Part shown: positions 1,147 through 55,800 of the stretch, piece by piece
Position numbering within the stretch: position 1 is the first letter of the stretch
Layout of the letters: every line of letters begins with the position of its first letter
Origin: an uncultured Candidatus Bathyarchaeia archaeon
GTDB lineage: Archaea > Thermoproteota > Bathyarchaeia > Bathyarchaeales > Bathycorpusculaceae
Direction of reading: 5' to 3'
DNA length: 64,000 nucleotides
Assembly (NCBI GenBank): GCA_964399235.1
Contig: CAYNQC010000002.1
Span: forward strand, 3,224-67,223
Made by a program: the position numbers and the translations under genes
Notes under the pieces: generated by a model
What the model was told of the DNA's origin: nothing
The model's input: the letters and a program-made list of their open reading frames with translations, nothing else
Databases searched by the model: none

Positions 1147-1524
1147 CTATGGAACGTAGACCCATTTCCCATCCTGAAGCTTGTACAGCAACGGCTTAAC
1201 AGCATAGAACCGGCGAGTATCCTGGGTGGGTTGCCGGCGGTCCAGGTAAAATGGCGCAGACGAGGCGCTTATCCCGGAGGCATTGCGAGCCTGCACCGTG
1301 ATGGTTCGCTCACCACCCAGATTCCCCACGTCATAGCGCAGCAGCCATAGGTTGTTCGCTGATTTGACAGCAGGCACCACTACGGGATTTGGCATCCCGC
1401 TAACCGACACCACAAACTCTTTTGGAGCCCCAGGCCCGTCCGGGTATGGGTTTGCCGTCAAGACTGGGGCCGCTAAGGCTGCATTTGCTAGCAGCATTCC
1501 AGCAATTAGCGTCAAATGTTTCAT
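1147..1524 (-). CDS. secreted protein (signal peptide)
   Basis: MKHLTLIAGMLLANAALAAP signal-peptide-like N-terminus; GGGAGGG SD upstream of ATG. Confidence 0.6.
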   Translation of the reverse strand: MKHLTLIAGMLLANAALAAPVLTANPYPDGPGAPKEFVVSVSGMPNPVVVPAVKSANNLWLLRYDVGNLGGERTITVQARNASGISASSAPFYLDRRQPTQDTRRFYAVKPLLYKLQDGKWVYVP

Positions 1525-1536
1525 GTCACCCTCCCA

Positions 1537-1773
1537 TCACAAATTGGTTGGTTCGTATTCAGCGATAGGGATATTAGCGTCCACTGCCTGGTGCTCTTCC
1601 TGTATGGCTCTCGACATAGCGTAGTAGGCGTCCAGGCAATCACCAAGATAAGCGGCCAGAATATAGTCTGGAGTGTTCGTTTTGTTGTCAATGTAGTGCG
1701 TATTCATGACGCTGGAGAGCCCCAATAAAAGGGCCGGGTTGGTGAGTTTGTATTCGCTCATGCGCTCCTCCAT
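1537..1773 (-). CDS. hypothetical protein
   Basis: 78-aa ORF abutting stop of upstream gene; alternative ATG at 1761 has GGAGGA SD. Confidence 0.5.
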   Translation of the reverse strand: MEERMSEYKLTNPALLLGLSSVMNTHYIDNKTNTPDYILAAYLGDCLDAYYAMSRAIQEEHQAVDANIPIAEYEPTNL

Positions 1774-1989
1774 TTAAAACGTAGTGGGTTTGGCGATCGC
1801 CCTAACCAGCGCCATCAGGCCGGTCTGGAGGTCGGTGGCGCCAATCTCTACCCAGCGCTGATCACAATAGGGAGTCTCCCGCAACTGATCCACCATTCCG
1901 CCGAGCTTGACCCCCACATGCTTGAGCGAATTGATCAGCTCTACATCAACAGCATCAAGTTGGCGATAGCCAGTAATGGGGACGCTCAT
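1774..1989 (-). CDS. Acb2-like candidate cyclic-oligonucleotide sponge (anti-CBASS type), 71 aa
   Basis: Last 71 codons of ORF 1774-2292; ATGA overlap with upstream gene at 1986-1989; C-terminal DQRWVEIGATDLQTGLMALVRAIAKPTTF resembles the Phage_gp49_66/Acb2 family as I recall it. Confidence 0.5.
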   Translation of the reverse strand: MSVPITGYRQLDAVDVELINSLKHVGVKLGGMVDQLRETPYCDQRWVEIGATDLQTGLMALVRAIAKPTTF

Positions 1990-2366
1990 TGCAACTTCAG
2001 CCCAACTGGCGCCGCAGGAGGCTCGGATGCCACGACTTTGCTTGCTTCGTTGGACCACGGACTGCATTCGTCGGCCGACTGTGGGGGCACAGTGAAGGTG
2101 CCAGGCCGGCAGGCCTTGATCCGCCCAGTAACGGTAGTCCCGGTGCGCCCTGCCAGATCTATGGTGTAGGTGGTGGCGGTAATGGGGGTTATGGCGGGCG
2201 AGGCGGCATAGGTCCCGGAGCCCATCTTGGTCTCTAAAATAAATTTGTTGGCCCCGGTATTCTGGGTACTGTTGACAGGATAGGCGTCCCACTGAAAGGT
2301 GACGACGGGGGCGGCGGAGACGAGGGTAGGAACAAACAGGGCTAGAACAATCAGGATGTACTTCAT
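1986..2366 (-). CDS. secreted Ig/FN3-like protein
   Basis: Start at MKYILIVLALFVPTLVSAAP (signal peptide) inside ORF 1986-2417; beta-rich, Thr/Gly-rich mature part. Confidence 0.6.
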   Translation of the reverse strand: MKYILIVLALFVPTLVSAAPVVTFQWDAYPVNSTQNTGANKFILETKMGSGTYAASPAITPITATTYTIDLAGRTGTTVTGRIKACRPGTFTVPPQSADECSPWSNEASKVVASEPPAAPVGLKLQ

Positions 2367-2746
2367 TATGGTATCCATAAATGGTAGGAGAACACCGGGA
2401 TTATCCAATCCGGCCACTCCTGTCTTGCAAACAGCACCAAACCTCTGATGGTGCGCGTGTCGGCCCCATCCCTGACCAATTCGGCGCGCGCCGCGTTCAT
2501 GCTTTTCCCGGTAGTGAACACATCATCAACAATAAGTAGTGTGCGAGCCTTTGGGGATTCGTGGCGCCTTAATTTAGCGGCCAGTCTGAGCCCGCCATTG
2601 GGTATTCCGATTACCCGATGAAACTTGAAAGCAGAGTGAATTATATAAGTGAAGGTCTCTAAGTCTTGGTCGGTTAGATCGTCACACTCTATTTTCCAAG
2701 TGAGCGTTTTGTCGGCGTGAGACTGAAAGACCTTCCGGTTAAACAC
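2366..2746 (-). CDS. phosphoribosyltransferase-fold protein (short, 126 aa)
   Basis: LLIVDDVFTTGKSM is a type I PRTase PRPP-binding loop; GTG start. Confidence 0.75.
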   Translation of the reverse strand: MFNRKVFQSHADKTLTWKIECDDLTDQDLETFTYIIHSAFKFHRVIGIPNGGLRLAAKLRRHESPKARTLLIVDDVFTTGKSMNAARAELVRDGADTRTIRGLVLFARQEWPDWIIPVFSYHLWIP

Positions 2747-2752
2747 AGAGGC

Positions 2753-3079
2753 TTACGGGCCAGAGGCTTCAGCATCCGGCACGATGTCATCCAGAGCTTG
2801 GGCTTGAGCAGTCAGGGCGGCCAGGGCGGCATCCGCTTCTGGAGTCAGAGCGATATTAGCCAGCGCTAGCTGTAGCGCATCAATCTTGGCCAGGATCTCA
2901 GCCTTGGCTTTGGTGAGTTGGTTATCGACCGAGACCAGGGTCGCGGCTAGTTCATTGAGTTGAGTCATGACATTCTCCACACGATTCGGCAAGTGCACCC
3001 ACTTGGATAAATCGCCATCCCCGACGGGCAGCACAATGATCGGGGTTTGCGTATCAATAGTAATCTTCATAGTATACAT
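2753..3079 (-). CDS. coiled-coil protein
   Basis: ATG at 3079 (MYTMKITID...) with AGGAG 7 nt upstream; Ala/Leu heptad-like C-terminal half. Confidence 0.55.
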   Translation of the reverse strand: MYTMKITIDTQTPIIVLPVGDGDLSKWVHLPNRVENVMTQLNELAATLVSVDNQLTKAKAEILAKIDALQLALANIALTPEADAALAALTAQAQALDDIVPDAEASGP

Positions 3080-3141
3080 CGTTGTACTCCTGGCGCCCCA
3101 GCGCCTAAACCTCGACAGTAAAGGCTCCAGGAATGCACACA

Positions 3142-3468
3142 TCAGTATTCAAACGTTAGCAGACTATCCCGGTATTGCTTCTCCAGAGACTGGCAGGCGC
3201 TGGTATAGGTAGCAAATTTGTCTAGGTTTTTGTGGATCAGGTCGGGACATGCCTTGAAGGTATGTCGATCTTTGGGAAGGTTCACCCGGGCGGCGATCGC
3301 GGCCAGGGCGGTATCCAGCACATGGTTGGTGATCTCTAAAGTCTCTCTGATCTCCATAGGCGTCTTACCATTGCAGAGCAGCTCCACAATTCTAAGTCCG
3401 ATAAGCTCCTTGGGGTTTGCGGTTGCCCAACCAGATTGGGCCTCTTCTAAAATTTTAAGGGTATCCAC
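3142..3468 (-). CDS. putative HTH DNA-binding protein
   Basis: GKTPMEIRETLEITNHVLDTALAAI looks like a helix-turn-helix. Confidence 0.45.
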   Translation of the reverse strand: MDTLKILEEAQSGWATANPKELIGLRIVELLCNGKTPMEIRETLEITNHVLDTALAAIAARVNLPKDRHTFKACPDLIHKNLDKFATYTSACQSLEKQYRDSLLTFEY

Positions 3469-3469
3469 G

Positions 3470-3766
3470 CTATTGACCTGGCTGTGTTGATTGGATGATC
3501 GCAGTAAGAACTCTCACTTGCTCACGCAATATCTTATCACGAACAGCCAGTCTTTTGTAGGCGTCAGGGGTGATACATAGCTGATTATTTACCAGTTTAA
3601 ACTCATCACGGTTGACCACGGGCAGGTCTTGCATGGGCGGGGCATCGAGGGGGATCACCACGTACTCTTTTTGGGTGGCCGCACACCCGCATAGCATGAC
3701 AAAGACCGTGATGGAGAAGATCGCGAATGTCAGCCACCAGGTTATCCGTCTCCAGTCCATGATCAT
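3470..3766 (-). CDS. lipoprotein, possible spanin component
   Basis: Hydrophobic signal followed by lipobox-like LCGC; Pro-rich then helical C-terminus; lies in the lysis neighbourhood. Confidence 0.5.
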   Translation of the reverse strand: MIMDWRRITWWLTFAIFSITVFVMLCGCAATQKEYVVIPLDAPPMQDLPVVNRDEFKLVNNQLCITPDAYKRLAVRDKILREQVRVLTAIIQSTQPGQ

Positions 3767-3978
3767 GCCAGCGACTCCCCACTATACCGGCACCATGCCA
3801 TCCTGGCCTGCAACCACGCCTTGGTATAGCGCTGCACAGCGACTGCTTGTGGCTCCTGAAAGAACCCCGCCGAGACCTCTTCGAACTCAGCCGCCAGCAG
3901 GCGCAGCTCGTGGTCTGTCTCCAGCCCATCCTCATCCGCCCGTTCTCGCATTCGTCGCACCAGGTGGGGGTTGTTCAT
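3763..3978 (-). CDS. hypothetical protein
   Basis: 71-aa ORF with 4-nt overlaps to both neighbours. Confidence 0.5.
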   Translation of the reverse strand: MNNPHLVRRMRERADEDGLETDHELRLLAAEFEEVSAGFFQEPQAVAVQRYTKAWLQARMAWCRYSGESLA

Positions 3979-4226
3979 CGCTTGCTCTCGAAGTCCTTGG
4001 GGACGTCTGGGTTAGGGGGATCTCCAAGCTCTTTATCGGCAAGGGCTCTGGCATCCTCGGCGGCTTTTCTGGTCTTCTCCAGCATATTGAGTGCGTAGTT
4101 GGAGCGTTCAGTTTCGGCTCGTGCCGCGTCATAATCTTTGCGGACATTGCGCGCCTTCTGAAATCCGATCGCGCCGCCCAATAGACCGATAATTCCAAGC
4201 AGTATGCCTATCAATCCAGTTGTCAT
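3975..4226 (-). CDS. N-terminal TM plus coiled-coil protein (i-spanin- or holin-associated-like)
   Basis: Start MTTGLIGILLGIIGLLGGAIGF (TM helix), ATGA overlap with upstream gene at 4223-4226; charged helical tail. Confidence 0.5.
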   Translation of the reverse strand: MTTGLIGILLGIIGLLGGAIGFQKARNVRKDYDAARAETERSNYALNMLEKTRKAAEDARALADKELGDPPNPDVPKDFESKR

Positions 4227-30004: not shown

Positions 30005-30406
30005 ATGGGTAGACGCTCCCTTGACCTGGCTGGTAAACACTTCCATCGCTGGGTGGTTCTGGAACAGGCGTCCGGCTTACCGGGTTGGTGGCTCTGCTGC
30101 TGTAAGTGTGGGACTGTGAAGACGGTGCTGGGGAGTTCCCTGGTGTATGGCAACAGCAAATCCTGTGGGTGCTTGCAGAAAGAGCTGCAGCGTGTACGGG
30201 CTACTGAGCCTACCAAGCGCAGTCATCTGCTGACCTATCAGGGTAAGACCCAGTCATTGGCGCGCTGGTCGCGTGAGTATAACCTGGCTGCCGACACCAT
30301 CCGCAATCGCCTGAATCGGGGCTGGGATCTGGAGAAGGCCTTGAGCACTCCCTCGCGGGCTGCGCGCTCTCCTGATCTGGTGACGGTCTTCGAGGTTATG
30401 CCGTGA
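30005..30406 (+). CDS. zinc-ribbon plus HTH DNA-binding protein upstream of terminase
   Basis: WWLCCCKCGTVKTV...SKSCGC ribbon; C-terminal QSLARWSREYNLAADTIRNRLNRGWDLEKAL HTH-like. Confidence 0.6.
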   Translation: MGRRSLDLAGKHFHRWVVLEQASGLPGWWLCCCKCGTVKTVLGSSLVYGNSKSCGCLQKELQRVRATEPTKRSHLLTYQGKTQSLARWSREYNLAADTIRNRLNRGWDLEKALSTPSRAARSPDLVTVFEVMP

Positions 30407-33400
30407 TTCCTAACCTGGGTGCCTTGCCCCTCTGTGAGCTGGCCCCGGCGCATCATGCGATCCTGATCGAGCAGGAGCTGTCTCGGCGGGCTGAGAAGAA
30501 AATCCTGGAGCGTGACTTCGCGGCCTTCGCCAAAGCGGCCTGGCACGTAGTAGCCCCGGATCGGGAGCTGGTTTGGAACTGGCACCACGATCTGATCTGC
30601 AACTACCTGGAAGCATTCGCCCTGCGCTACATCCGCAACCTGCAGATCAACATCCCCCCGCGCTGCACCAAGTCCATCCTGTGCGCGGTCCTCTACCCGG
30701 TATGGGTATGGATCAAGCAGCCCAACCATCAGTTCCTGACCTTGAGCTTCAAGGAAGACCTCTCAACCCGCGATGCCGTGGCCTCGAGGAACCTTATGGC
30801 CTCAGAGTGGTTTCAGCGCAGGTGGAGCGATCGCTTCAAGTTCAGCGGGGATACCAACGCCAAGACCAGATACCAAAACGATCATTCCGGGCATCGGATC
30901 TCCTCGGGTATGACCTCTGGCGTGTTGGGTGACGGTGGTGATTGCCTTCCTGGGGAGACCAGGGTGATGACGGAGGTAGGGGAGATTCGTATCGACACCC
31001 TCACCCAGTTGATAGACAAGCCGAGGGTGTTATCCTACAATCATCTGACCGAACAACTCGAATATCGCCCTGTGGTGGCGGCCCGGGAGCTTCCTGCAGA
31101 TGAACTTATCGAATTTAAAACATCCAGCGGTAATACGCTCAGAACTACCCGGCGGCATCGTCTGTACGTCCATAAATCCGGTTACCGGCCAGCGAAGAAT
31201 ATCTGCCTTGGTGAAAGATTCCTCGAACTCGTGCCCGGTATGCCATGGGTCCAAACTCAAGGAGAGCCAGTTCTGCAGCCCCTGTTATCACCAGATGAAG
31301 CGCCAGGAAGTGGAGACGGTGTGCTCGTTATGTGGGACCCCGGTAATCCAGGAACTCTCGGCATTCAGGAAAAAAGTCGAGCGGGATGGGCAGACCGAAT
31401 TCTATTGCTGTGTCGAGCATTCGCGGGCGCATCACGCAGTCAAGAATCGCCGGAAGTGCGCGGTTTGCGGATCCAGGGTAGCGAAGAAAACCAGGAAATA
31501 CTGCTCGACAGCCTGCCGGGAGTCAGCCAGAAAGCCCGCCTTGGAGATTGCCTGCGAAACCTGTGGGAAGCGATTTCATCCGGCGAACTCCAAGGTTCGG
31601 TATTGCTCGCTGGACTGTTCGGCGCTGGCCCACAGCCGGCGTATGCGGGGAGAAGGGAATACCAGATACCAGGATGGGAGATGCGTCCAGAGTGGGTTCC
31701 GTGCGATGCGGCCGGTGATTATGGAGCGGGATGGGCGGGCTTGTGTGGCTTGCAGGACGCAGGAAAACTTGATCGTGCATCACATGGACCGGGACCGGAA
31801 GAACAATCGGGTAGAGAATCTGGTCGTTCTGTGTCAGCCCTGCCACGTCAGGAGGCATCACTGCGCACCTCCGGCGTTCGAGTGGTTGCCAGGGTACGTC
31901 ATGGGGGCGAGCCAGTCTATGACCTCCAGGTTGCAGGAAACAGCAACTTCTTTGCTAACGGAATTCTGTCCCACAACAGCATAATAATCGACGATCCGCA
32001 CGACCCAGAGGGCGCGCAGTCGGATGCTCAGCGGGCGACCACCCTGCGGTCCTACGACGGTCAGCTCATCACGCGCTTGAACGATCGGCGCTCGGGCGGG
32101 ATCCTGATCTTCATGCAGCGGCTGCACGACCACGATCTGTGCGGGCATGTGCTGGCCAGGGAGGGGCAGGCTGATCAGGGCGGGCGCTGGCATCGCCTGG
32201 TAGTACCCATGCGCTACGACCCAGAGCTCAGCCTGTCGACTTACCCTGAAGCCGGCAAGGACCCGCGCACCAAGCCTGGGGAGCTGTTGGATCCGATCCG
32301 TTTCCCAAGAGGGGAAGTAGACTTGCTGGAGACGACCCTGGGGCCTTACAACGTCTCGGGCCAGCACCAGCAGTCCCCATCCCCCCCGGGCGGAGGGATC
32401 CTGAAAACGGCCTGGTGGCAGATGTGGCCCAAGGAGCGCCCGCTGCCCAAATGCAGGGAAATCTTCGCCTCCCTGGATACCGCCTTCACTGAGCGCCATC
32501 ACAAGGAAATGGAGCAGACAGGTCATGCGGCGCGCTCGGCCTGCACGGTCTGGGGGGTGTTCGAGGAGGACAATGGGGCGCCTGGGGTGATGCTGATTGG
32601 GTCCTGGGCTGACTGGATTGATTGGCCGGCCCTGGTGAAAAAGGCCAGGGAGACCTACGATCGCCACGACCCTGACTACATCCTGATCGAGAAAAAGGCC
32701 TCTGGCATATCCCTGCTGCAGGACCTGAAGTACCAGGGCATCCCTGTCGTCGAGTACACGCCGGATGGTGACAAGATTGCCCGCGCCTACGCCTGTCAGT
32801 CCATCCTGTCCTCGGGCTTTGTGTGGTATCCGGATCGTGCCTGGGCGCACGAGGTGGTGGCGGAATGCGCTGCTTTCCCGCGTGGCTCACTGAAGGACTA
32901 TCCCGATACCTGCGTGACTCCGGATACGGAAATCTACTGCGCCGAGGGCGTGAAGCCGATTCGTGACATAGTCCCTGGAGATTGGGTGCTTACTCATGCG
33001 GGTAGATTCAGAAGGGTCACCAGCGTGATGACCAGAACCAGCGACCATATCCACCGCTTCAAGGCTAAGTGCCTGGATGAAATATCGATAACCGGGAACC
33101 ATCCAATGTTTATCCAGAGGGCTGATGGGGTGGGATGGATACCGGTTGCCGAGGTCAAGCCAAGAGAGAAGTTTCAGTTCTATAGAAAAGGCAAGGTAGT
33201 AAGCTGTCCCGTTTACTTGAAGTCGGCCGATTTTGATATGGCTGTGCTGCCGGAAATACGCGGGGCTGACGGGGCTTGGTCAGTGCTTGTTGGTGCCTTC
33301 GCCGAGGAAGAATTGACTGGCTTGCGTGCCGGACGGAAGAAGTGTGAGAAAAAATTTAGTCTGAATTATGACCAGGGATGGTTGTTTGGGTTGTTTCTTG

Positions 33401-34179
33401 CAGAGGGGTGCGTAACCAAGAGCCGGGGTATCCCCAGTAAAATTGTCATCGCCTGTAATGAGGGCGCCATGCTGAAGGCGCAGAGCATCATCAGCAGCAC
33501 TTTTGGGGTTGATGTCAAGATTCGGAATGAAGGGGTTTGCCATAAGCTGGTGATTTGCAGAAAAGCGCTCGTGCCGGTATTTGAAACCTTCGGTCACCTC
33601 GCTGAAAATAAATATATCCCCCGGTGGGTCATGGAGGCCCCCATATCCTTCGTAAAAGGGTTCGTCGAGGGTTACGTAACCGGTGATGGAACTATCGATC
33701 ATGACGCTATACGATGCTCGTCCGCATCGAGATCTCTATTGCTGCAGCTTAGGTTATTGCTGATCAGATTAGGGAAATCGGCAAGCCTTTGCATGGAAAA
33801 GCCGGCCGGGGTGCGCGTCATCAACGGCGCCATGTGTGAGTGTTTGCCGGCGTACTCGATTAATTGGGTGACCAGGGACGATACGACGACGATAGGAAGA
33901 CCGCTGGAGGGCGGCGGTATGGGCTACTGGGTCGAGAGAAATGACAGGATCGAGGGGCCTGTTGAAGTCATGAACCTGTCCGTCGATGAAGACGAATCTT
34001 ACGTAACGACCGGCGGGACTGTGCATAACTGCACGCAGGCGTGGCTGCGAATCAAGAAATCAGGGCTGCTGCGCCGAAAAGTCATCCCCTTCAGGGACCC
34101 TGGACTTGATGACGAGGAGGATGAGCCGGCATTTGTGAAACCCAAGAAATACCGCAGGGTAGTAGGTATTTACGGCTAG
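30403..34179 (+). CDS. terL: terminase large subunit precursor containing two inteins (540 aa after splicing)
   Basis: GTG start in GTGA overlap; extein motifs ...GVLGDGGD/SIIIDDPHD (Walker B-like) and ...KDYPDT/CTQAWL; QRLHDHDL. Confidence 0.85.
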   Translation: MIPNLGALPLCELAPAHHAILIEQELSRRAEKKILERDFAAFAKAAWHVVAPDRELVWNWHHDLICNYLEAFALRYIRNLQINIPPRCTKSILCAVLYPVWVWIKQPNHQFLTLSFKEDLSTRDAVASRNLMASEWFQRRWSDRFKFSGDTNAKTRYQNDHSGHRISSGMTSGVLGDGGDCLPGETRVMTEVGEIRIDTLTQLIDKPRVLSYNHLTEQLEYRPVVAARELPADELIEFKTSSGNTLRTTRRHRLYVHKSGYRPAKNICLGERFLELVPGMPWVQTQGEPVLQPLLSPDEAPGSGDGVLVMWDPGNPGTLGIQEKSRAGWADRILLLCRAFAGASRSQESPEVRGLRIQGSEENQEILLDSLPGVSQKARLGDCLRNLWEAISSGELQGSVLLAGLFGAGPQPAYAGRREYQIPGWEMRPEWVPCDAAGDYGAGWAGLCGLQDAGKLDRASHGPGPEEQSGRESGRSVSALPRQEASLRTSGVRVVARVRHGGEPVYDLQVAGNSNFFANGILSHNSIIIDDPHDPEGAQSDAQRATTLRSYDGQLITRLNDRRSGGILIFMQRLHDHDLCGHVLAREGQADQGGRWHRLVVPMRYDPELSLSTYPEAGKDPRTKPGELLDPIRFPRGEVDLLETTLGPYNVSGQHQQSPSPPGGGILKTAWWQMWPKERPLPKCREIFASLDTAFTERHHKEMEQTGHAARSACTVWGVFEEDNGAPGVMLIGSWADWIDWPALVKKARETYDRHDPDYILIEKKASGISLLQDLKYQGIPVVEYTPDGDKIARAYACQSILSSGFVWYPDRAWAHEVVAECAAFPRGSLKDYPDTCVTPDTEIYCAEGVKPIRDIVPGDWVLTHAGRFRRVTSVMTRTSDHIHRFKAKCLDEISITGNHPMFIQRADGVGWIPVAEVKPREKFQFYRKGKVVSCPVYLKSADFDMAVLPEIRGADGAWSVLVGAFAEEELTGLRAGRKKCEKKFSLNYDQGWLFGLFLAEGCVTKSRGIPSKIVIACNEGAMLKAQSIISSTFGVDVKIRNEGVCHKLVICRKALVPVFETFGHLAENKYIPRWVMEAPISFVKGFVEGYVTGDGTIDHDAIRCSSASRSLLLQLRLLLIRLGKSASLCMEKPAGVRVINGAMCECLPAYSINWVTRDDTTTIGRPLEGGGMGYWVERNDRIEGPVEVMNLSVDEDESYVTTGGTVHNCTQAWLRIKKSGLLRRKVIPFRDPGLDDEEDEPAFVKPKKYRRVVGIYG
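30943..31977 (+). mobile_element. intein 1 (345 codons) at the Walker B-like motif
   Basis: Starts CLPGETRV, block B GNTLRTTRRHRLYV, ends PVYDLQVAGNSNFFANGILSHN followed by S. Confidence 0.8.
31100..31984 (+). CDS. HNH endonuclease ORF in +1 frame nested within intein 1
   Basis: Five CxxC-type pairs, then CVACRTQENLIVHHMDRDRKNNRVENLVVLCQPCHVRRH; GGGAG 10 nt upstream of ATG 31100; stop 7 nt past the intein end. Confidence 0.6.
   Translation: MNLSNLKHPAVIRSELPGGIVCTSINPVTGQRRISALVKDSSNSCPVCHGSKLKESQFCSPCYHQMKRQEVETVCSLCGTPVIQELSAFRKKVERDGQTEFYCCVEHSRAHHAVKNRRKCAVCGSRVAKKTRKYCSTACRESARKPALEIACETCGKRFHPANSKVRYCSLDCSALAHSRRMRGEGNTRYQDGRCVQSGFRAMRPVIMERDGRACVACRTQENLIVHHMDRDRKNNRVENLVVLCQPCHVRRHHCAPPAFEWLPGYVMGASQSMTSRLQETATSLLTEFCPTTA
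32911..34029 (+). mobile_element. intein 2 (373 codons) with LAGLIDADG homing endonuclease domain
   Basis: Starts CVTPDTEIY, block B ITGNHPMF, LAGLIDADG motifs WLFGLFLAEGCV and FVEGYVTGDGTI, ends SYVTTGGTVHN followed by C. Confidence 0.85.
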
Positions 34180-34220
34180 ATCGGCTACGCTATGGAAAAT
34201 CAACGTTTTGGGGGGAGTCA

Positions 34221-36575
34221 ATGCACAACCTAGCCACTGACCTGAGTACGATCTATAGTCTGGTCGATCAGGGTGGGGAGGATTTGCTGACCGACGAAGA
34301 GCGTGCCCAGCTCCCCGCCAAACGAGTCAAGGCCCGCAAACCCAAGTTCCAAGAAAATCTGGCAGAGGTCCTTGACGATACGACGCTGGGGAATATCGCC
34401 GAGGATGTGGTGCTGGGCTACAACGAGGACGAGGCCAGCCGCCAGGATTGGCGAGCCAGGGAGAAATTGGGCATCCGGCTGCTGGGCATCAGTGAGAATG
34501 CGGATGGGTTGCCGGCCTTCGAGAATGCCTCGGTCGCTGTCCATCCCGGCCTGATCGAAGCCGTTATCCAATTCCAGGCCCGCGCTATCTCCGAGTTGTG
34601 GCCACCGGAAGGTCCGGCCAAAGCTTTCGTCGAGGGGCAAGCCGCCAACTATGAGCGGGAGCTGCAGGCTCAGCGCGTCGCCGACTACCTGAACTGGCTC
34701 TACACCTCCAGGATGCCGGGCGGGTACTTGAACCACGATCGCCTGCTGATGCGCCTGCCCTTATCAGGGTCGGTCTTCAAGAAAGTCTTCTACGACCCCC
34801 TGGCCCGCACCATCGTGTCGCGCTACGTCGCTGCTGAAGACCTGGTTATTCCCTATGGGGCCACTGACCTGCTGACGGTCCCCCGCGCCACCCACATCAT
34901 CCCCTACACCGAGACTGACCTGCGGCGCCTGATTGAAGCCGGGACGTATCGCGATATCGACATCGACACGCTGTCCTATCAGGACGAGAAGACCGAGCTG
35001 CAGCCGGAGCTGGATGCTGTCTCATCGACGAAGCCTACAGGCATCCGCCTCAAGAATGCCGGCCGGTTTGTGTTCCTGGAGCAGTCCGCCTTCCTGGATA
35101 TCGACGGGGAGCCAGAGAATTCGCCCTATTTGGTGACGGTTGACCGCGACTCCATGCAGGTCTTCTCGATCTACCGGGATTGGCGCAAGGCCGACAAATA
35201 CCGTACCCGGCGCCAGCGCTTCATCCACTACTACTTCTTGCCTGGCCTGGATGGATTTTACGGGCTGGGGCTGCTGCACATTCTTGGCCGGCTGGCCGAA
35301 GCGCTGTCTGGGAATCTTCGCGCCCTACTCGATTCTGCCACGCTGGCCAACCTACAAGGGGGCTTTCGCTCTGCCGACGTCAAGCTGCCGCGCGGGAATC
35401 GTGGCGAGGACTTGATGATCAGGCCGGGCGCCTGGCCGGCAGTGGAGGCGACGGTCGATGACCTCAACAAGCTGTTTTTCAAGATCCCCTACAAGGAACC
35501 CAGCCAGACCCTGTTCAACCTGCTCCAGTACCTCGACGAGGTGTTCCGGCGCATTGCCACCACGAGTACGGAGCTGGTCGGCGAAGGAACTAAGCCAGTC
35601 CCAGTGGGCACGACCCTGGCGCGCATCGAGCAGGGCCTTAAAGTCCAGTCTGGAATCCAGATCCGCTGCCATCACGCCCAAGCTCAGGAGCTGGTGCTGG
35701 TTTGCGAGCTAACTTCGGAGACGCTGCCTGACGAGGGCTATTGCCGCGACGTGTTAAACACCACTCCCGACGTGTTCGCTGCAGATTTTGATGCTCGCGT
35801 AGACGTCAGGCCGGTCTCCGATCCTAATGCCATCACCTCGACCCAGCGGTTGGTGATCGCGCAGGCCACGGTCGATATGGCCAACCAGTCCCCGGATATC
35901 GTGGATCGCCGGGAAGCCTATAAGCGGCTGATGGAGGCCATGCGTCAGCAGGACATCGAGCTGTTATTGCCCGACAAGGCCAAAGTCGAGCGCATGGGGC
36001 CGATCGAGGAAAACATGGCGATGATGATCATGAAGCCCGTCAAGAGCTATCCTGATCAGGACCATACTGCGCACATCGCGGTCCATCAGCCTTGGTTCAT
36101 GGGCCTGGATACCGAGACTCAGACCCGCCTGCAGGGAGCCGCGATGGCCCACATGGCCGAGCACCAGGCCTGGATGTACCAGATTCAGATGCAGCAGATG
36201 CTGGGTATCCAGCTCCCGGCCCCGGGGGAGGCCAGCCAGATGGATCCCCAGATGGAAAACCAGTTGGCGGCCATGGCGGCCCAGGCATCTCAGTTGATGG
36301 CACAGTATCAAGCCTCCCAGCCGCCGCCGGCCGACCCCAACGCGATCATTGCCGATGGCAAAGTCCAGGCAGAGCGGCAAAAGGCCGAGGCCGATATTCG
36401 CCGCAAGGATGCTCTGGCCAGCGCCTCAATGGCCCGCGACTCCGCCACTACCATCGCCAGGCTCAACCAGGATGCGGCCCAGCACGAGGCCAATTTACTG
36501 TCCAAATACATGAGCGCCGAGGCATCCAAAGCTTTGACACAAGCCCAGATCGATGCCAAGAGTAAGACTCAATGA
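34221..36575 (+). CDS. portal protein
   Basis: 784 aa directly after terminase; size and position; GGGGGGAG SD. Confidence 0.75.
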   Translation: MHNLATDLSTIYSLVDQGGEDLLTDEERAQLPAKRVKARKPKFQENLAEVLDDTTLGNIAEDVVLGYNEDEASRQDWRAREKLGIRLLGISENADGLPAFENASVAVHPGLIEAVIQFQARAISELWPPEGPAKAFVEGQAANYERELQAQRVADYLNWLYTSRMPGGYLNHDRLLMRLPLSGSVFKKVFYDPLARTIVSRYVAAEDLVIPYGATDLLTVPRATHIIPYTETDLRRLIEAGTYRDIDIDTLSYQDEKTELQPELDAVSSTKPTGIRLKNAGRFVFLEQSAFLDIDGEPENSPYLVTVDRDSMQVFSIYRDWRKADKYRTRRQRFIHYYFLPGLDGFYGLGLLHILGRLAEALSGNLRALLDSATLANLQGGFRSADVKLPRGNRGEDLMIRPGAWPAVEATVDDLNKLFFKIPYKEPSQTLFNLLQYLDEVFRRIATTSTELVGEGTKPVPVGTTLARIEQGLKVQSGIQIRCHHAQAQELVLVCELTSETLPDEGYCRDVLNTTPDVFAADFDARVDVRPVSDPNAITSTQRLVIAQATVDMANQSPDIVDRREAYKRLMEAMRQQDIELLLPDKAKVERMGPIEENMAMMIMKPVKSYPDQDHTAHIAVHQPWFMGLDTETQTRLQGAAMAHMAEHQAWMYQIQMQQMLGIQLPAPGEASQMDPQMENQLAAMAAQASQLMAQYQASQPPPADPNAIIADGKVQAERQKAEADIRRKDALASASMARDSATTIARLNQDAAQHEANLLSKYMSAEASKALTQAQIDAKSKTQ

Positions 36576-46836: not shown

Positions 46837-46845
46837 GGAGAGGTG

Positions 46846-49800
46846 ATGGCTAATTGGTGGGAAACTCCGCAGCAGCCGGTTCCACTGCCGTCCGCTCAGC
46901 CGGATCTCGGCTCAATGGATTTGGCGCAACTATACAGAGAAGCTTATGGGTTCCGTGATGTGCCCCCTTCTGCTGCGCCCCTCCCCCCTGTCGCGAGCAC
47001 CGAACCAGTACCACCCCAGCCCGGGCTGCTCTCCGATGTAGGTAATCTGCTCAAGCGGGGCTATGCCAGCACCGCCGAGGGCGTCAACTGGCTGGCCGGA
47101 CAAACCCCGGGGCTCAACAATATTCCGGCCTTGGACTGGCAGGGTAACGCTGATTACTGGAAGCAGGTCGCCGATCAGACCACCCAGAAGCTCTCGCTCG
47201 CCCAGCAGGCTGCCGGTGAAAAGAAGTTCTTCAATGAAGATTACACCCCCGGGGAAGCCTGGAAAGACCCTCGTTCCTACCTGGGTGGTGCTGTCGAGTC
47301 GATTCCTGGCACTGTGGTCGGCATGGCTGCTGGTGCGCCGATCGCCGGCATTGTCAATAAGGTCGGGATGGGGCTGCTTACCCGTGGCGCTACGGCGGCG
47401 GCCGAGAAGGCCCTGGCGGGTGGGGCTGAGGCAGCGGCCGTCAAGGCGGCGGGACAGGTCACTAATAAGGCGGCTGGTCGGGTCGCGATGGGGGCTGGCG
47501 CTGTAGGCTATGGTGCTGGTGAAGGAGTTACGGCGGCGGCTACGGATGGGGCGCAGGCGCGTGATCTGGTTATGGGTCGGTCCCCCGAGGAGATGGCTGC
47601 TTCCCCGCTGTATCAGCAGTTGCTGGCAAAAGGACTACCCCCTGACCAGGCCCAGCAGCAGGTAGCCGATACGGTTGCCGAGCAGGTAGCGACTCGGGCC
47701 GGGATCTCGGTGGCCGTCATGGGCGCACCTATGGGCGCCGTCTTTGGTAAGTGGTTCCACTCTGCCGGCGGTGAAAAAATCACCAAATCTCTGCTGGGTG
47801 AGCTGGCAGTGGGTACGCTCGGAGAGGGCGCGCAGGAGTTCCCACAATCTGGTGCTGAGCAGTTTTTTCAGAACCAGGCCATCAAGCAGCATGTCGATCC
47901 CAAGCAGAAGCTCTGGGAAGGGGTGCTTAATGCATCGGTGGCGGGCTCTGTCTCGGGGGCGGTCATGGGTGGCGCCATGGGTGGCTTCCAGGGTATTGGG
48001 GCCAAGGCCGGCGCCGCCAATGCAAGAATCAATGAAGAGCTAAGCAAGGCTGCTTTTGCGAACAATCTGCAATTTGCGACGGCTGATGATCTGCATGCTG
48101 CCATGGCGCACCTGGATACGCTCGGTCAGCAGAAGGATCTGCCTAAAGAGTCAATTGATCGGGTCGCTCAGGCCCGCAGCACCATCCAGGCCGAGATGGC
48201 CCTCAGAGCCACTCCTGAGACGCTGGCACAGCCTCTGCGTGACGACCAGGGCAACGTACAGCCCAGAGCTGAATCCGCCTTCCTGGGGCTCTCAGAGCGT
48301 CCACACGGGCTTAGCGATGACCAGCTAGCCGAAGCCGCCAATCGTCCGCTAGGTGAAGATGCGCCGGCTGAATGGGGGGCCGCCCAGGATCGCTACAAAG
48401 CCGAGATCGCCCATCGGACTGCCCTCAGTAATACCGTCAAGCACTTTACCGATAACCCGGGGGCGGTTGGTGGTGTCAGCTCCAGAATACTAGATATAGT
48501 GTCTGGCAGGCCGCTTACTCCCAAAGGGTATGGGTCTACTGACTTCAACCTGGCCACCCTGTCAGATGATCTGTTGACTCGCTATCGGATGGCGGGTGAA
48601 GTGCTGTTGCGTGACCATCCTGAGACACTTGGCAAGAAGCAAACATCCAAGTTGACCGAGGCGGTAGACCAGCTCCATCAAGAGGCCGATCGCCGCGCTG
48701 CCGGCCAGCAGGGCAACCCCGAGGAGATCAAGGTTAATGAGCAGGTCACCAGCCTCGCTTCCCAGCCTGCTAAGAAATTCAGTGATACCGTTAAAACGCT
48801 CTCTGCAGAGGCGCTCACGCGCGCTGCGAAGATTATTGAGTCACGCCTCCAGCTTGAGCCCGCGCTGGCTCCAAAACTGGAAGAGATCAACGCCAGAGTC
48901 GGGGTCCTACAGGCCCAACAGGCGAGCGTTCAACAAGCAAGTGTCGCTACGCCTGCGCCTGAGAGCGTACAGGGAGCTGCACCGGTCGTTGAGGCTGTCG
49001 CTCCTGCAACCCCTGCCCCCGCGCCTGCGGCGGCTGTCCCGGAGTCTGTCGTGGCCCCGGCGCCCAGCGCCCAGGCAGCCCCAGCGGTAACTGCGCCAGC
49101 ACCATCAGCACCATCAGCGCCATCAGCGCTCGCCCTGCCTGCCCCGGCCACGCCGGTTGCAGTGGAGAGGGTAGCCGCCGGCCTGCCGGTGATCTACTCC
49201 AATAAGGACCGGATCAAAGAGGTCAAGGCCAACCCCAACTACAACGTGATCGCCCTCCCGGATGGGCGCGCCAAGGTGGTTGGTGTGCTGCATCCAAAGA
49301 CTCAACAGTGGATCGGATTTCCCCCTAATGCACCCGTACCAGCCGCGCCTAAAGCCCTACCCGCTCCCGCGCCGACCACTCCCGCTGCTCAACCCGTGGA
49401 GGCAGCTCAGCCGGCTGCGGAAGTTGCCCCGAAGGGTGGTGCTGCAAGTGCTATTCCTAGCGCTCCATCGGTCGAGCCGCCCATCGAGGCGCCAAGCGTA
49501 CCTGTCACTAAACCCAAAAAGGTAACCTCCAATGCCACTAGCATACGTCAAGATCAGAGATTCCCTAGCCAAAGGGGCCAAGAAGGACAGTCCGGCGTAC
49601 AACAAGGCTCAGAGCCGGGCGGCGGCAATTTACGTGTCCAAGGGAAAAAGCAAGTCGCAGCGAAGCAAGTTGGCGAAACAGTTACACGACAAGTAGTTTC
49701 AACGAAGGGCAAATTTGGCCTTCCTAAGTCGTCTCCAGATGGTGTCGCCGCAAACGCCAAGCTGCTTCCCCACGGCGCGAACCGACAAGCCACTCTCGTA

Positions 49801-52800
49801 AAGGGCTTTGATAGTCTCAATAGGAATCGGCAGCGTGCGGTGCTCGGCCATGTGATCAGCGTGCTTCAAGATGACGAGGTTGCACGGTCTGTTGTCAAGA
49901 CCATCCCCGTTGATGTGATGGACATGCTCACTGGAAAGGATGGGTCTTCCGAGGAGGTTTTGCATAACCCATCGATGCTCCGTAATGCTCTTATTGTCCC
50001 GCTTGATGCGTCTATACCTGCTGGTGTGAGCAGATTTATCGAGTCTATAGCCGGTAGGGCGGCATCGGCCAGCACAAGTCCTGCTGCAGTAAAAGCCAGC
50101 TTGACGAACAAGACGGCCGGCAGCGAACTTTCTGGTAAAAACGGTCCCACAAAAGTCGCAAGCAAGGGTAATGGTAGCCAAGGGGTGGGCTCCGAAAGCA
50201 GTAAGAAGCAAGAGAGTATACGCGGACAACGCCAGTCAAAACAAGCAGCCAAGTCGGTCACCCCGCTGCAAAGCACGGCCACGATGGCTAGGCATGCAGC
50301 CTACAAGACGCTTGGCATCAACTGGAATAAGACCCACGAGGTCGTCAAGCAAGATCAAGACTGGGCAGTCGTCGAGAAACCTACAGTTGCCAAAGAAGAG
50401 GGACCGCTGGCTGCCCCCAATCTTGACCTGTTTGCAGAGCCAAATCCCGACCAGTTCGATCTGTTTTCTGACGCTGAGCCCACCAACGACCCCAAGCTGC
50501 AGAAGGCCCAGGATGGGGCTAGGAAGGCGGTGGAGGCACTGCGGACTCAGCGAGGCTCGATACTTGGGAATGCGATCGCCAAGGACTTCGAGGATCACAG
50601 CATCACGTCATTGATAGGCAAGAAGATCCGGTCAGCCAAGGATTTGGCGGTGCTGGCGCAGGTCTATCGCAATCCCAGCTTTGAGACCTTCAGGTACTTC
50701 TTCACCAAAGGTAATGCTGTGGTAGCCCAAACTGCCACCACCGCTCGGCTGCCAGGCTGTACCCCAATCTTCACGGGCCACGATACGACGTGGGGAGACG
50801 GACTGGAGCAGCTCAAGCGGATGATGGCCGAGTCAGGTGCTGATGGGTATTACATCCTCCACAACCACCCCTCTGGGTCGCCAGAGCCTTCCGCAGCCGA
50901 TGTTCAGGTGACCAAGGGTCTGGCCGCCATGCTGCCCGGGTTTAAGGGTCATGTCGTTATCGATCAGACCAAGTATGGATTGATGCGCGCGAATGGCAGT
51001 CAGTTGGTGGCCGACCTTCCAGAGAAGGCACTTCAGGACGATACCCGCTATAACGTCGACCGCCAGTACACACGGCCGCATTTTGCGCTCGGTGCAAGGA
51101 TTAATTCGTCAGCAGATGTCGCGGCGACCGCCAGTGCTCTGCGGTATAACTCCGGCAGTGGGTACTTCCAATTGGTTGGGACCAACAGACATGGTGTGCG
51201 TGGCATCATGGAGGTCCCCATAGAGGCGCTCAAGGGCTACCGCCAAACAAAAACCGGAAGCTTGCGGATAGTTGCGGAGGTGAGGAGATTCGCCAGAACT
51301 ACTGGCAGTGTTGACATATTCGCTATCAACCTCCCCGGAAACATCGGTCGCATGAGCGTGCTGGGGGCGATCAAGTCAGGCCTGTTTAAAGATGTCCATT
51401 TTGCCGGGGACACCAACACCATCAGGGAAACGACGATAGTTGGTACGACGCCGGGGGCCGAAATGGGCAGAATTGGCTCTCGCGGGATCGGGGCTTCAGA
51501 AAGCCAAGCATCCCCTTATGTGGAAACCAAACTGGCCGAGTCTGAGCCGATCGTCCCCAAGGGGATGGCCGGTCTGCAAAATGCTGCCAGCATCAGCGCC
51601 ATCAACCATCTCGCCAAGGCCAGGAAGTTTGACAGCAACCTAGAGCTGAAGGATGTCATCGAGGATCGAGTAACTGCGGCGGCGGCCAGGCTGAAGGACT
51701 TCAACCTGCGGGCCAAGACCCTTGGGCAGCGCGAGAAGAGCTACCTGTCGACCCAGTTATACAACGAGATGCGCCAGGGTCTGCTGAGCGGGAGTGATGC
51801 GCTGGGATGGTATGAGGGAAAGGTGCATGGGGCCTTTGAATACCTGGCGCTCAAGCATCCCGAACTGAAGTTTCTTGACAAAGACCATGGCGGTATGGAG
51901 CAGGTTCGCAGGAATCGCTTTGCCTACACCTACATCCTGGCGATGACCTCCAACGGGACCAAGGTCGAGAAGAACGCCGAAAACGCCCAGAGACTCTACA
52001 CCAGATTCCTAGAGAATGGCCATTTGCCAACGACAGGATTTGGTAGCGGTACGGCCGCCACGAACATCGAAAAATCGGCAGAACTGTTCAATGAGCTGGC
52101 TGATCGATTTGGGATAGACCGGTTTGGTCGGATGATGATGACCCAGTTCAAGGTGATCGATCTGAGCAACGCCGGTATCAAGACCAGCGGTGAGACTTCC
52201 GATCAGGACGTGCTTGGCGCGTTGGTGTTGGGGCCGAAGCTGGGCAATGGGTTCTTTGCCAATCTGAACGGAATCTTCGATCAGCTCACCATGGATCGCT
52301 GGTTCATGCGTACCTGGGGGCGGCTGATCGGGCACCTGCGCGAGGTTTATCCGGAAAGGGTTAATACTCATCGCGCAAGTGTGCGAGATATCATAAATAA
52401 CTTAACAAATGAAGTCAGGGATGTTATAGTTGATCATCTGACCCGTCCGGGCTCCCGTCAGGCAACCAAGGATAAGGCCAAGCTACTGACGGCGGCGATG
52501 GCGCCCGGCGCGACCGATGAGGATATCGATGCCTTGGCTTGGATGGTCAAGGGGCTGACGGTTAGTGATCAGTTCAGGGACATACTAAATCCGGCCGGAA
52601 ATGGGCAGGGCAGTGAGCTGCGGCTGGCGACCAACTCCCTGACGACCAATCTGATGGGTGATATCGAGGCGCCCACTAGGACCCAGCGGCCCCAGATCCG
52701 CGAGGTGATGACCGAGGCCATCCGCCTATTGGGGGAGCATACCGGGGTCAATCTGACCGCCGCCGACGCACAGGCCCTGCTCTGGTATCCAGAGAAGCTT

Positions 52801-55800
52801 CTGTATGACAAGGCGAAGCTGGCGGCCGGTCAGGAGAAGACATATGCAGCAGATGACCTGCCCGACTATGAAAACATCGCCCGGCAGCTTGTCGCAACTT
52901 TAGGAGTGCCACAACATGAAATCGATGCAGTCACCAGCCGACTTGCCGGAGAGCGAGCAACGCCTGACGCCGGACGATCAGCAGGAGCTGTTCTACCAGG
53001 GCCTGGAGGGGAAGGACTTCAAGCAGATAGCGGCCAACTTAGATACGCTGGTTTCAACGAAGGAGAGAGGCGAGAGTTCCTCCGGCAAGAAACCCTCCGC
53101 ACTCTCCATACCGGACCTGCTTTTGGAGGGGATAATACGGGATTACCCGGGTCTTTCAAGGGAGGAAGCCCAGGCAGTCTTAGATATGAGTTAGGCGGGA
53201 CGTCTTACGACGTCGTCACCACGCAGACATTCAACCCATCTCAGCTAGTCACCCATCGGTTTGGCAGGGCTGCCATCACCCCGTTGAAGATAGCTGAGGT
53301 GGATACTGCTGATGCAAAGTCAGTAGAGGCATTCCATGCGGCTGTCGCAGATGCCAAAGCCAACACCCTATATGGGGCCGCTGTTGAGCCAAAATCGATT
53401 GCCCAGTTGAGTGGCCAGGAGGATGGCTATCAGGGCATCCGGCTGTTCATGACCAAGGATGGGAAATCGGGGTTTGCCATCAAAAAGAATGGCGATATCG
53501 TCTCCGTCTTCTCGCAGTCCAGGGAGGGGGTCCAATTCACCACCGGTAGCATGCTCATGCTGGCCATCCAAGAAGGTGGCCGCAAGCTGGATGCTTATGA
53601 CATCGGACTTCCCAGACTCTACTCCGTGCACGGGATGAAGGAAGTCGCCAGGACTCCTTTCAATGAGCAGTATGCCCCGGAAGACTGGGACTATGAAGTT
53701 TTTAAGAAATTCAACAACGGTCGTCCAGACATCGTCTTTATGGTCTTCGACCCAGATCGTGCGCACTTCGCCATCTATGGTGACGGCGCCCCCAGGGCCG
53801 CTCCAGTCCCCGAGTACGACGATGGTGTAAATATCCAGCAGGCTGCCATCGAGTCTCTGCGTGCCCAGCGTCAAACCGCCAATGCTCAAGCTGGCATAAC
53901 GCCCAGGCTCCGCTACTCCAAGTCTGCTGGTGGTGTTGGTGTTTCCATCCAAGAGGCCCGTGCTCAGCTCATTAACGCCATTGGGGCTGCGCAGGTCCAG
54001 GCTCTGGAGAAGGCTGGCCGGCTGGTGTTCCACGAGTCTGATCCCACCGGTATGGGTGGTGCTGGCTATGTGGACAGCAAGGGCGTCATTCACCTGATCC
54101 CCGCCAACATGGACTCCACAGCCCTCGACGTCGCGCTGCATGAGGCTGTGCATGTCGGCAAGGACGATCGGTTCTTTGAAGGTAGCCGCGCCCAGATCCA
54201 GCTTGCTCATGCCACGTTGAGCCTGGTGGGGCTGAAAAACTTCATCGGGGCGCCCAGCTTCAATGATCTGGCCGGGCAGGTCCGGCGGCTGGCTGCGGCA
54301 GGCAATAAAGCGGCTCAAGATGCCCTAGCGAAGGCGACCGAAGTCGATCCCACCAATGTGGACGAGGAGAGTGTCGCTTATTTATCTCAGTACGCCGATG
54401 CCAAGCTCCCCCTGGTCCGCCGTATCCTGGCCGCCATCCGCGCCGTCCTCTATCGCATGGGTGTGAAAATCGAACTGCGACCGGAGGATATTCGAGCCTT
54501 GGCGATGAGCGCCTTGAAGGCCAGGGCCTCGATGACGACCCAGACCCAGAGGGTTGCCCCAGCCTACAGTGAGCCGGGGATAGAGGTGACCGACATCTCA
54601 TGGGAAGAGTTCTCCCGCATCCGCAATGCCTATATGACCGCTCCGAAGACCTCAGAGGGCGCCTTTAAGGCCTGGTTCGGCAAAGGGGTTGAGGGTGTCA
54701 ATGCAATCAATGGCAAGCCTCTCACGCTGTACCACGCTTCTTCTGGCGGGTATACCCAGTGGGATGAGACCAAGGCCGGGCAGGCCAGCGGGCACCCCAC
54801 CAGTGGGCTCGGATTCTTCATGACGGCCGATGCTGGCGCGGCTGCCCGGTATGGCAACAATGTCCAGGAGTTCTACGTCAAGATTAGCAACCCCTACTAC
54901 TTGACCGACGCCGACCTGATGGGCCTCAACTCGGTGGATGATGCCACCAAGCTCAGGAGGCGCCTACAGTCTCAAGGTTATGACGCGGGGGTGGTAACGG
55001 CGCCGGGGGCTGCTCCCTATGTGATCGCCTTCACCAGCAACCAAGTCAAGTTCACTTCCAACACCAATCCCACTGCCAGCCCTGACTTCCGCTATTCGCT
55101 GACAGGTAGGCCTGTCGCCACCGGTCTGACCGGCGATCGCATCCTGGACGAGTTCAACCGCAAGGCCGGCATGTCCGAGCGGGAGAGCACCATCCAAGCC
55201 GTGCAGCGGGTGATGAAGAATCCCGCCCAACGGCAGACCGTCATCCAGAGCATGATCAACCGCTTCATCGAGGGGACCTTCGACGAGACCCATCAGGGCA
55301 AGCTGCACGAGCTGGCGCAGGGCATCGATATTTCCGACCCCTCGGTGAGTGGTAATGCCGCGCAGCGCCTGTCCACGGGCTGGGCCGACACCCTCTACCA
55401 CATCCTGGTCCATGGTGCCCCCATGTGGCGGAATGGAGTCGTGGCCAGGAAGACCATGAAGGGTCTGTTCGATATCCTCAGTCCGGTCTCCGACCCCGAG
55501 CTGATGCGTGAGTGGCTGGGCTGGAGAGCGGCTACTCGTGCTGACCGACTGCTCCGTGAGCGGAATCCCGATGGGACCCCCAAAGAGAAAAACTTCACCC
55601 GGGCCGAGGTAGACCATGTCCTCAATCGTATCAACGCGGACCCCGCCAAGCTCGCAATGTTCGAGTCTGTGGGTGTGGAGTTTAATCAGTTTGAGAGCGA
55701 CATGCTGGACTTGGCCGTGGGGGCTGGACTTGTCGATGCAAGGCTGGCCGCTCAGTGGAAAGCACACGAAGACTATCTGCCCTTCTTCCGTGAAGTAGAG

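Follow-up and report, generated by a model that had tools for sequence, protein, structure and literature searches.

The intein in the terminase of brucellaphages, which carries an HNH endonuclease outside the intein reading frame, was described in 2015 (PMC4422536). Out-of-frame nucleases have also been reported in other inteins and explained as the outcome of invasion by a free-standing nuclease gene (bioRxiv 10.1101/2025.01.02.630785). The same preprint lists the intein of Gordonia phage Clown (cluster 108) as "HNH," a class described there as in-frame, and Clown's out-of-frame state seems not to be spelled out in it (bioRxiv 10.1101/2025.01.02.630785). A cyanobacterial dnaX intein likewise contains an out-of-frame nuclease, and the idea has been traced to Gorbalenya 1998 (bioRxiv 10.64898/2026.09.14.751524). 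The present analysis concerns the window, a stretch of 64,000 nucleotides (nt) of contig CAYNQC010000002.1 from an uncultured Candidatus Bathyarchaeia archaeon, and in it the first of two inteins (intein 1) in a gene for the large subunit of a phage terminase (TerL). A sequence-only reading of the window had proposed that this intein harbours an HNH endonuclease gene in the +1 frame, and knew of no intein whose homing endonuclease is out of frame; the annotation of Brucella phages, PMC4422536 and the two preprints show otherwise. The reading favoured here, at a probability of about 0.8, is that intein 1 is a class-1 terminase intein whose +1 frame holds a zinc-ribbon HNH homing endonuclease gene of the free-standing type. 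The features of the terminase open reading frame (ORF) and of its inteins are as follows, all on the forward (+) strand.

30403..34179 (+): terminase large-subunit precursor ORF, 1258 codons, with two inteins (ORF calling, Pfam)
30943..31977 (+): intein 1, 345 amino acids (aa), class-1 type (Cys1, block B TxxH at T69-H72, C-terminal His-Asn, Ser+1)
30943..31230 (+): N-terminal splicing region of intein 1 (blocks A and B), overlapping the 5' end of the HNH ORF from 31100
31085..31089 (+): Shine-Dalgarno-like GGGAG of presumed function, 10 nt 5' of the HNH ATG
31100..31984 (+): HNH endonuclease ORF, 294 aa, in the +1 frame of the terminase (Pfam, homologues, AlphaFold2)
31231..31875 (+): terminase-frame linker, about 215 codons, with no recognisable domain (no Pfam domain)
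31232..31618 (+): Cys-rich zinc-ribbon module array of the HNH protein, C45..C173 (DZR_2, invariant Cys columns, fold matches to zinc-finger arrays)
31742..31858 (+): HNH catalytic core, C215-x2-C218 ... H227 H228 ... N240 ... C245-x2-C248-H249 ... H252 H253 (HNH_3)
31876..31977 (+): C-terminal splicing region of intein 1, VRVVARVRHGGEPVYDLQVAGNSNFFANGILSHN, overlapping the 3' tail of the HNH ORF
32911..34029 (+): intein 2, 373 aa, with an in-frame LAGLIDADG endonuclease (Pfam LAGLIDADG_3, Hint_2)

The terminase ORF is stop-free throughout, and the splicing blocks that the sequence-only reading had placed in its frame are recovered by Pfam, in which Intein_splicing scores 46.1 bits (cutoff 35.8) and covers the N- and C-terminal parts only (terminase-frame residues 202-525). 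Cys1 lies at 30943 in CLPGETRV and aligns with Cys1 of about 50 homologues, block B is GNTLRTTRRHRLYV (31129..31170), with T69-R-R-H72 as its TxxH, and blocks F/G are VYDLQVAGNSNFFANGILSHN followed by S, so that the intein ends on His-Asn (...GILSHN, 31977) before Ser+1. The N-terminal splicing region is homologous, and the insertion site common, among about 50 loci. In the window the insertion reads GVLGDGGD|SIIIDDP, and the terminase DNA at the junction, with the intein removed, is ...GGTGAT|AGCATAATAATCGACGAT...; the hhhDDP motif directly after the intein is probably the Walker B motif of the terminase. The predicted spliced terminase has 540 aa and aligns to phage TerL in one piece, the best matches being the intein-less proteins of Roseobacter phages CRP-901/902 (41-44% identity), and its RNaseH-like nuclease domain gives a weak, sub-threshold Pfam match (19.2 bits, cutoff 22.6). 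Intein 2 is inserted near the terminase C-terminus (...DYPDT|C...VHN|CTQAW). This anatomy bears on the idea that the insert is a self-splicing intron with an HNH ORF, which has in its favour only the RefSeq note in NC_019447 that calls the HNH of Brucella phage Pr "intron-encoded." With in-frame intein splicing blocks flanking the insert and a host frame that is selected to be open (see below), an intron is barely conceivable; an Rfam scan of 30400..34200 found no intron family at E <= 1.

In the +1 frame, the HNH ORF has the start, the GGGAG and the end that the sequence-only reading had given it, with a TAA stop that ends 7 nt beyond the end of intein 1. Its identity as a Cys-rich HNH enzyme is borne out by matches to HNH_3 (28.4 bits, cutoff 24.8) and DZR_2 (31.4 bits, cutoff 27), and by 13 homologous proteins, which match at E about 1e-50 to 1e-29 with 36-44% identity. 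Nearly all of these finish in a common tail, ...SMTSKWKATATSLLTxYSSTTA, and this tail is what intein blocks F/G give when translated in the +1 frame. Residues H227, H228, N240, H249, C215, C218 and C245 are invariant in the homologue alignment, and the ORF is full length and keeps all invariant Cys, His and Asn columns of the family. The AlphaFold2 model has a mean pLDDT (predicted local distance difference test) score of 78 and a predicted template modelling (pTM) score of 0.39, i.e., the protein is predicted to consist of separate modules on a string. A Foldseek search of this model against PDB gave no global match (best E 0.02), and locally its fold resembles zinc-finger arrays and, with a probability of 0.97, the Cap5 HNH domain; the zinc-ribbon array is presumed to be the DNA-binding part.

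The generality of the arrangement is seen in a set of loci assembled from the contigs of the protein homologues and from pattern searches, which added 50 viral contigs and 11 genome contigs. On every contig of the protein homologues a terminase gene encloses the HNH homologue, and a long ORF continues past it in the frame of that gene. Over the whole set, many members of which are interrelated, a +1-frame HNH occupies the same terminase site in 55 of 56 distinct loci, with 32-45% identity to the window HNH. The loci come from Streptomyces and other actinobacterial genomes, from Gordonia phage Clown, from viral metagenome contigs and from contigs of metagenome-assembled genomes (MAGs) labelled Pedobacter, Bacteroidetes, Clostridia and Methanothrix. 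The insertion site common to all of them is G.GG.TG.G.[NDH]|C...HN|[CS]hhhDDP. Homologous inteins were compared for an HNH in frame with the intein, a check that had been proposed from the sequence, and none was found among the related loci. Two of the contigs (L058 and L060, from Methanothrix/Methanosaeta MAGs) hold a bacterial-phage-like terminase intein with a +1-frame HNH, and could represent an archaeal virus or a binning contaminant. In three loci (L001, L004, and L005), gene callers pick up the HNH ORF together with the terminase's C-terminal half and leave the N-terminal half, with the intein start, uncalled, so that annotation of such terminases in public protein collections is systematically wrong.

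Both frames are open together over 292 codons in the window (31100..31977), where the sequence-only reading had given more than 200, and the third frame has 12 stops there. In the other coding genes of the window, the +1 frame contains about 3-6 stops per 100 codons, with a longest open run of 170 codons, and the -1 (=+2) frame contains 2-8 per 100. As a control within the same gene, intein 2 has 22 stops in its +1 frame and 29 in its +2 frame. The joint openness over intein 1 is greater than chance would give. The way in which the terminase frame stays open can be read from codon choice in the HNH frame, in which a codon is at risk when it stands before a codon starting with AA, AG or GA, since a T at its end then creates a terminase-frame stop. 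T-ending codons are found at 0 of 68 at-risk positions of the window HNH ORF and make up 20.4% elsewhere. The naive probability of finding no stop is 1.8e-7 for the window and falls to 1e-19 for low-GC (guanine-plus-cytosine) loci; when the HNH-frame codons of the window are shuffled synonymously, a mean of 6.9 terminase-frame stops results and 1 shuffle in 2000 is stop-free. T-ending codons are missing from at-risk positions in every locus, and across the HNH match (600-1200 nt) the terminase frame is stop-free in 55 of the 56 distinct loci, with 3-28 stops in the third frame. Four examples are:

L013: GC 0.345, 0 terminase-frame stops, 28 third-frame stops
L030: GC 0.372, 0 terminase-frame stops, 23 third-frame stops
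L044: GC 0.378, 0 terminase-frame stops, 26 third-frame stops
L064: GC 0.369, 0 terminase-frame stops, 20 third-frame stops

This codon pattern shows a terminase frame that is held open by selection, at a cost to the synonymous sites of the HNH frame. It also bears on an assembly or sequencing artefact, in which two compensating indels would have put an in-frame HNH out of frame in the window, an alternative that had been raised from the sequence and to which the absence of the exact window HNH protein from other assemblies might be added. The same frame relation in 55 of 56 distinct loci, its presence in finished genomes (Gordonia phage Clown, and Brucella phage Pr, which was analysed apart from that set), and the lack of any in-frame relative exclude it for practical purposes, and active avoidance of terminase-frame stops is not expected from an artefact.

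The terminase-frame linker between the splicing regions had been called low-complexity and rich in G, P, S, Q and E. The composition is roughly as stated, since the linker is rich in G, L, A, P, S, E, R and Q, while it is not strictly of low complexity. Disorder-promoting residues make up 64% of it in the window and a mean of 60% over 42 loci, against 47-50% in the HNH and splicing parts. An AlphaFold2 model from the single sequence of intein 1 has a pLDDT of 31 and carries no information. A protein search with the frame-0 intein (345 aa) found no match at E <= 0.001, likely because gene callers rarely call that frame.

Substitutions show which of the two frames is constrained as a protein. 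The phase of variation was compared in five groups of related loci. At the start of the intein, over ~90-270 nt (~180 nt in the Streptomyces-like group, which is the largest), the third position of the terminase codon is the most variable, and through most of the remaining intein the most variable position in all five groups is the first terminase position, which is the third position of the HNH codon. The figures for the Streptomyces-like loci are 0.47 at terminase position 3 (nt 1-90) and 0.39-0.44 at HNH position 3 (nt 271-720). The switch indicates that, midway through the intein, purifying selection on protein sequence acts in the HNH frame. This part thus evolves as an HNH gene, with a terminase-frame linker that is free to change except for stop avoidance. 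The HNH ORF ends 17-25 codons early in eight loci and starts later in many, which argues that the extreme ends of the HNH protein, overlapping the splicing blocks, are dispensable.

Two open frames could be translated in different ways. Programmed frameshifting could take two forms. In one, ribosomes would move by +1 past block B and return by -1 ahead of block F, giving a conventional intein with its HNH domain in frame; in the other, one +1 shift would give a fusion of N-extein, N-intein and HNH that terminates shortly beyond the intein. In many loci the open stretch of the HNH frame begins upstream of block B, and in most the frame closes 7-13 nt after the intein end, which makes such a fusion geometrically possible. 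Against a double shift stands the selection for a stop-free terminase frame over the full length of the HNH, for which such shifting has no use. The starts of the HNH ORF are also difficult to reconcile with shifting. They recur +148..+172 nt after Cys1, the window ATG with its GGGAG lying at +157; in L025 and L033 an ATG with AGGAG or GGGAG stands at +247..+265, 6-12 nt after an HNH-frame stop, so that a shift site has scant space there, and L022 and L023 are similar. Among the Streptomyces-like loci, a rare Asp codon, GAT, supplies the ATG, behind (A/G)AGGAC, in 8 of the 8 loci with this start, although GAT accounts for 3-15% of Asp codons in the same gene; a rare codon retained to form an ATG speaks against frameshifting. 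Neither of the marks of programmed frameshifting, a conserved shift site and the lack of an independent start, was found, no dedicated search for slippery motifs having been made. Frameshifting is therefore considered quite unlikely, and these starts suggest that the HNH protein is translated separately by internal initiation. With regard to the earlier proposal of an overprinted, separately translated gene, overprinting is supported by the 55 of 56 loci and by stop avoidance, and separate translation is the probable meaning of the Shine-Dalgarno-like starts and of the rare GAT codon.

The HNH gene has relatives at different stages of gain and loss. An apparently free-standing homologue, 42% identical to that of the window, is present on a Pseudomonadota MAG contig (JBDLIZ010000524.1, L063 2749..3777). 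Its Met and N-terminus are its own, no terminase lies nearby, and both other frames are rich in stops, with 12 in the upstream one; the contig ends within the HNH gene. At the terminase site itself, a 166-aa mini-intein (L057, IMGVR_UViG_3300007177_002415) has kept the last ~52 HNH-frame codons, and another short intein (L054, IMGVR_UViG_3300027653_000649) has a remnant of ~70 HNH codons; both look like deletion derivatives. L017 has a stop within the HNH ORF, and in Clostridia bacterium UC5.1-1D2 (BBZN01000054.1, L068 2376..4689) one indel near 3200-3296 shifts both frames, so this copy is either a decayed prophage or an assembly error. The two properties expected of a mobile intein, sporadic distribution and decay products, are thus both found (intein-less TerL relatives; L057, L054, and L068). 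The mini-intein, the remnant, the indel copy and the free-standing homologue together suggest a mobile element that decays after it has spread. Such relatives (L054, L057, L017, and L068) would also lend some colour to the proposal that the window HNH ORF is itself an inactive relic, in which only read-through of the terminase matters. The length of the ORF, its intact invariant columns, its scores above the Pfam cutoffs and the confidence of its model make this very unlikely.

The same derivatives are relevant to another role for the protein, namely that HNH was recruited as a partner of the terminase in packaging or cos cleavage, as in HK97-like HNH-terminase systems, and does not home, or no longer does so. 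The location of HNH in the terminase gene and the persistence of the arrangement to ~32% identity fit such a role. Nevertheless, the nuclease gene is always within the intein at one insertion site, and the deletion of HNH in L057, its remnant in L054 and the intein-less state of the nearest TerL imply that these phages do not need it. Packaging HNH proteins are small, and the architecture found here, of ~300 aa with several zinc ribbons, is unlike theirs. Recruitment to packaging is thus regarded as unlikely, although a functional association of HNH and terminase has been the subject of speculation for brucellaphages (PMC4422536).

Under the favoured reading of a homing endonuclease gene nested in a class-1 intein, the locus would work as follows. 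Ribosomes translating the terminase would stay in frame 0 and produce a precursor with a ~215-residue linker in its intein. The splicing blocks that flank the linker would then cut out the intein in full and join the exteins, which would yield an active terminase. The HNH gene occupies the slot where an in-frame endonuclease domain normally sits in inteins, and the same mRNA would yield its protein independently through internal initiation, for which the ATG at 31100 behind GGGAG is the likeliest site. HNH would cut intein-less terminase alleles of co-infecting or resident phages, and repair would copy the intein together with the nuclease gene (homing), with selection keeping both frames open. 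Phages that are viable in culture (Brucella Tb/Pr, Gordonia Clown) have TerL genes with this arrangement, from which it follows that their precursor would have to splice.

Several points weigh against this reading. Splicing, internal initiation, cleavage and homing of the window element, although well backed by comparative evidence, are extrapolated from its relatives. The position of the HNH start varies among loci, and several of the Shine-Dalgarno-like motifs are weak or lie 12 nt away. Because many of the loci are interrelated, the locus counts overstate the number of independent events. The conservation of the N- and C-terminal ends of HNH may be only the shadow of blocks B and F/G, and it is from composition alone that the linker is judged to be probably unstructured. 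Finally, an exact look-up of the window HNH protein placed it on record in no other public assembly, and the window sequence is to that extent without independent confirmation.

The window as a whole looks like a phage or prophage genome. Upstream, an ORF of 133 aa (30005..30406) ends 4 nt into the terminase start; it is Cys-rich (…WWLCCCKCG…SCGC…), has no Pfam match, and could encode a small terminase subunit or a zinc-finger protein. A portal-like ORF (34221..36575) lies downstream, followed by a giant ORF of 3669 codons (46843..57852, +). Pfam gave no matches for seven neighbouring ORFs, and no tRNA genes were found in the 64 kilobases (kb) of the window. A repeat was suspected from two pairs of ORFs of similar length (about 12-14 kb and 24-26 kb), and was rejected as there is no direct repeat of at least 100 nt.

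A further reading, possible and rather doubtful, is that the out-of-frame state is no transient by-product of invasion but has been stably maintained by selection in a single old lineage, which occurs in phages of several phyla. In that case, the +1 frame would uncouple the amount and timing of the nuclease from terminase synthesis, and there would be short dual-coding stretches, in which the HNH N-terminus overlaps block B and the C-terminal helices overlap blocks F/G. HNH synonymous sites would be measurably selected solely for an open host frame, and the family would be a natural model for the mutual constraint of overlapping genes. A stable architecture would also support an origin of intein endonuclease domains from nested free-standing genes that later slipped into frame.

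The closest described relatives are the terminase inteins of Brucella phages and of Gordonia phage Clown. A tblastn search of the window HNH against phage genomes returned 41 Brucella phage records in which a "terminase large subunit" overlaps a "putative HNH endonuclease." In Brucella phage Pr (NC_019447), the terminase F355_gp07 is noted "intein present" and F355_gp08 is the "putative HNH endonuclease," located in the +1 frame of the terminase (2681..3367 in L069). The Brucella phage Tb/Pr group (Perisivirus) has the insertion site of the window (GITGNRAD|C...VHN|CVIIDDP in Brucella) and homologous class-1 blocks, and the HNH of Pr is 31.6% identical over 89% of the window ORF, with the terminase frame open as in the window. 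These inteins are highly diverged from that of the window: the annotated HNH has 228 aa and a GTG start further downstream, the +1 residue is Cys, whereas that of the window is Ser, and there is no second terminase intein. Gordonia phage Clown (MT771343 gene 5) shares the site and the family, with a +1-frame HNH at 1961..3088 and the terminase at 1378..4137 (L007), and the in-frame translation of its HNH region is without a domain. Its block F/G DNA is 80.7% identical to the window over 83 nt, the sole match in a nucleotide search of phage genomes with the terminase. It differs from the window by a 385-aa intein with extra zinc ribbons. The insertion site, the +1-frame zinc-ribbon HNH and the open terminase frame that characterize the Brucella Tb/Pr and Gordonia Clown type are all present in the window.

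Other systems share the principle and differ in the components. The out-of-frame inteins of the earlier preprint also have a free-standing-type nuclease gene in the endonuclease slot, placed in a different frame or strand, and their host frame is open; by contrast, the terminase intein among them involves another nuclease family, frame 3 instead of frame 2, and the Vincenzo insertion site (bioRxiv 10.1101/2025.01.02.630785). The cyanobacterial dnaX intein resembles that of the window in being widely distributed, with a homing endonuclease that is out of frame, mini-intein relatives and purifying selection in the nuclease frame, but is found in a cellular host gene and contains a LAGLIDADG enzyme in the +2 frame (bioRxiv 10.64898/2026.09.14.751524). 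The ShiLan element of phage methylases similarly hides an HNH gene in another frame of an open host ORF; it has no intein splicing domain, and the insert is thought to remain in the protein as a loop (PMC11855218). Fractured genes with split inteins also have a separately translated nuclease gene between N- and C-terminal splicing parts; there the host is broken into two ORFs and splicing occurs in trans, whereas the terminase frame of the window is continuous and its splicing would be in cis (PMC2677866).

The arrangement is therefore not new, and current concepts are unchanged by the finding. As far as was found within the searched literature, the breadth of the family, the quantified stop avoidance and the phase switch are added here. 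The window and ~55 loci show that the class is widespread in phage terminases, with a host frame kept open by codon choice, and all stages are present among them, from an apparently free-standing gene and a nested gene to a remnant and a mini-intein. These stages support a model in which free-standing genes invade inteins and so furnish them with nucleases. For annotation they carry a warning, as gene callers often split these terminases or miss their N-terminal part. The window element itself is a diverged member of a known rare class, and a non-actinobacterial one, with a terminase closest to those of alphaproteobacterial phages.

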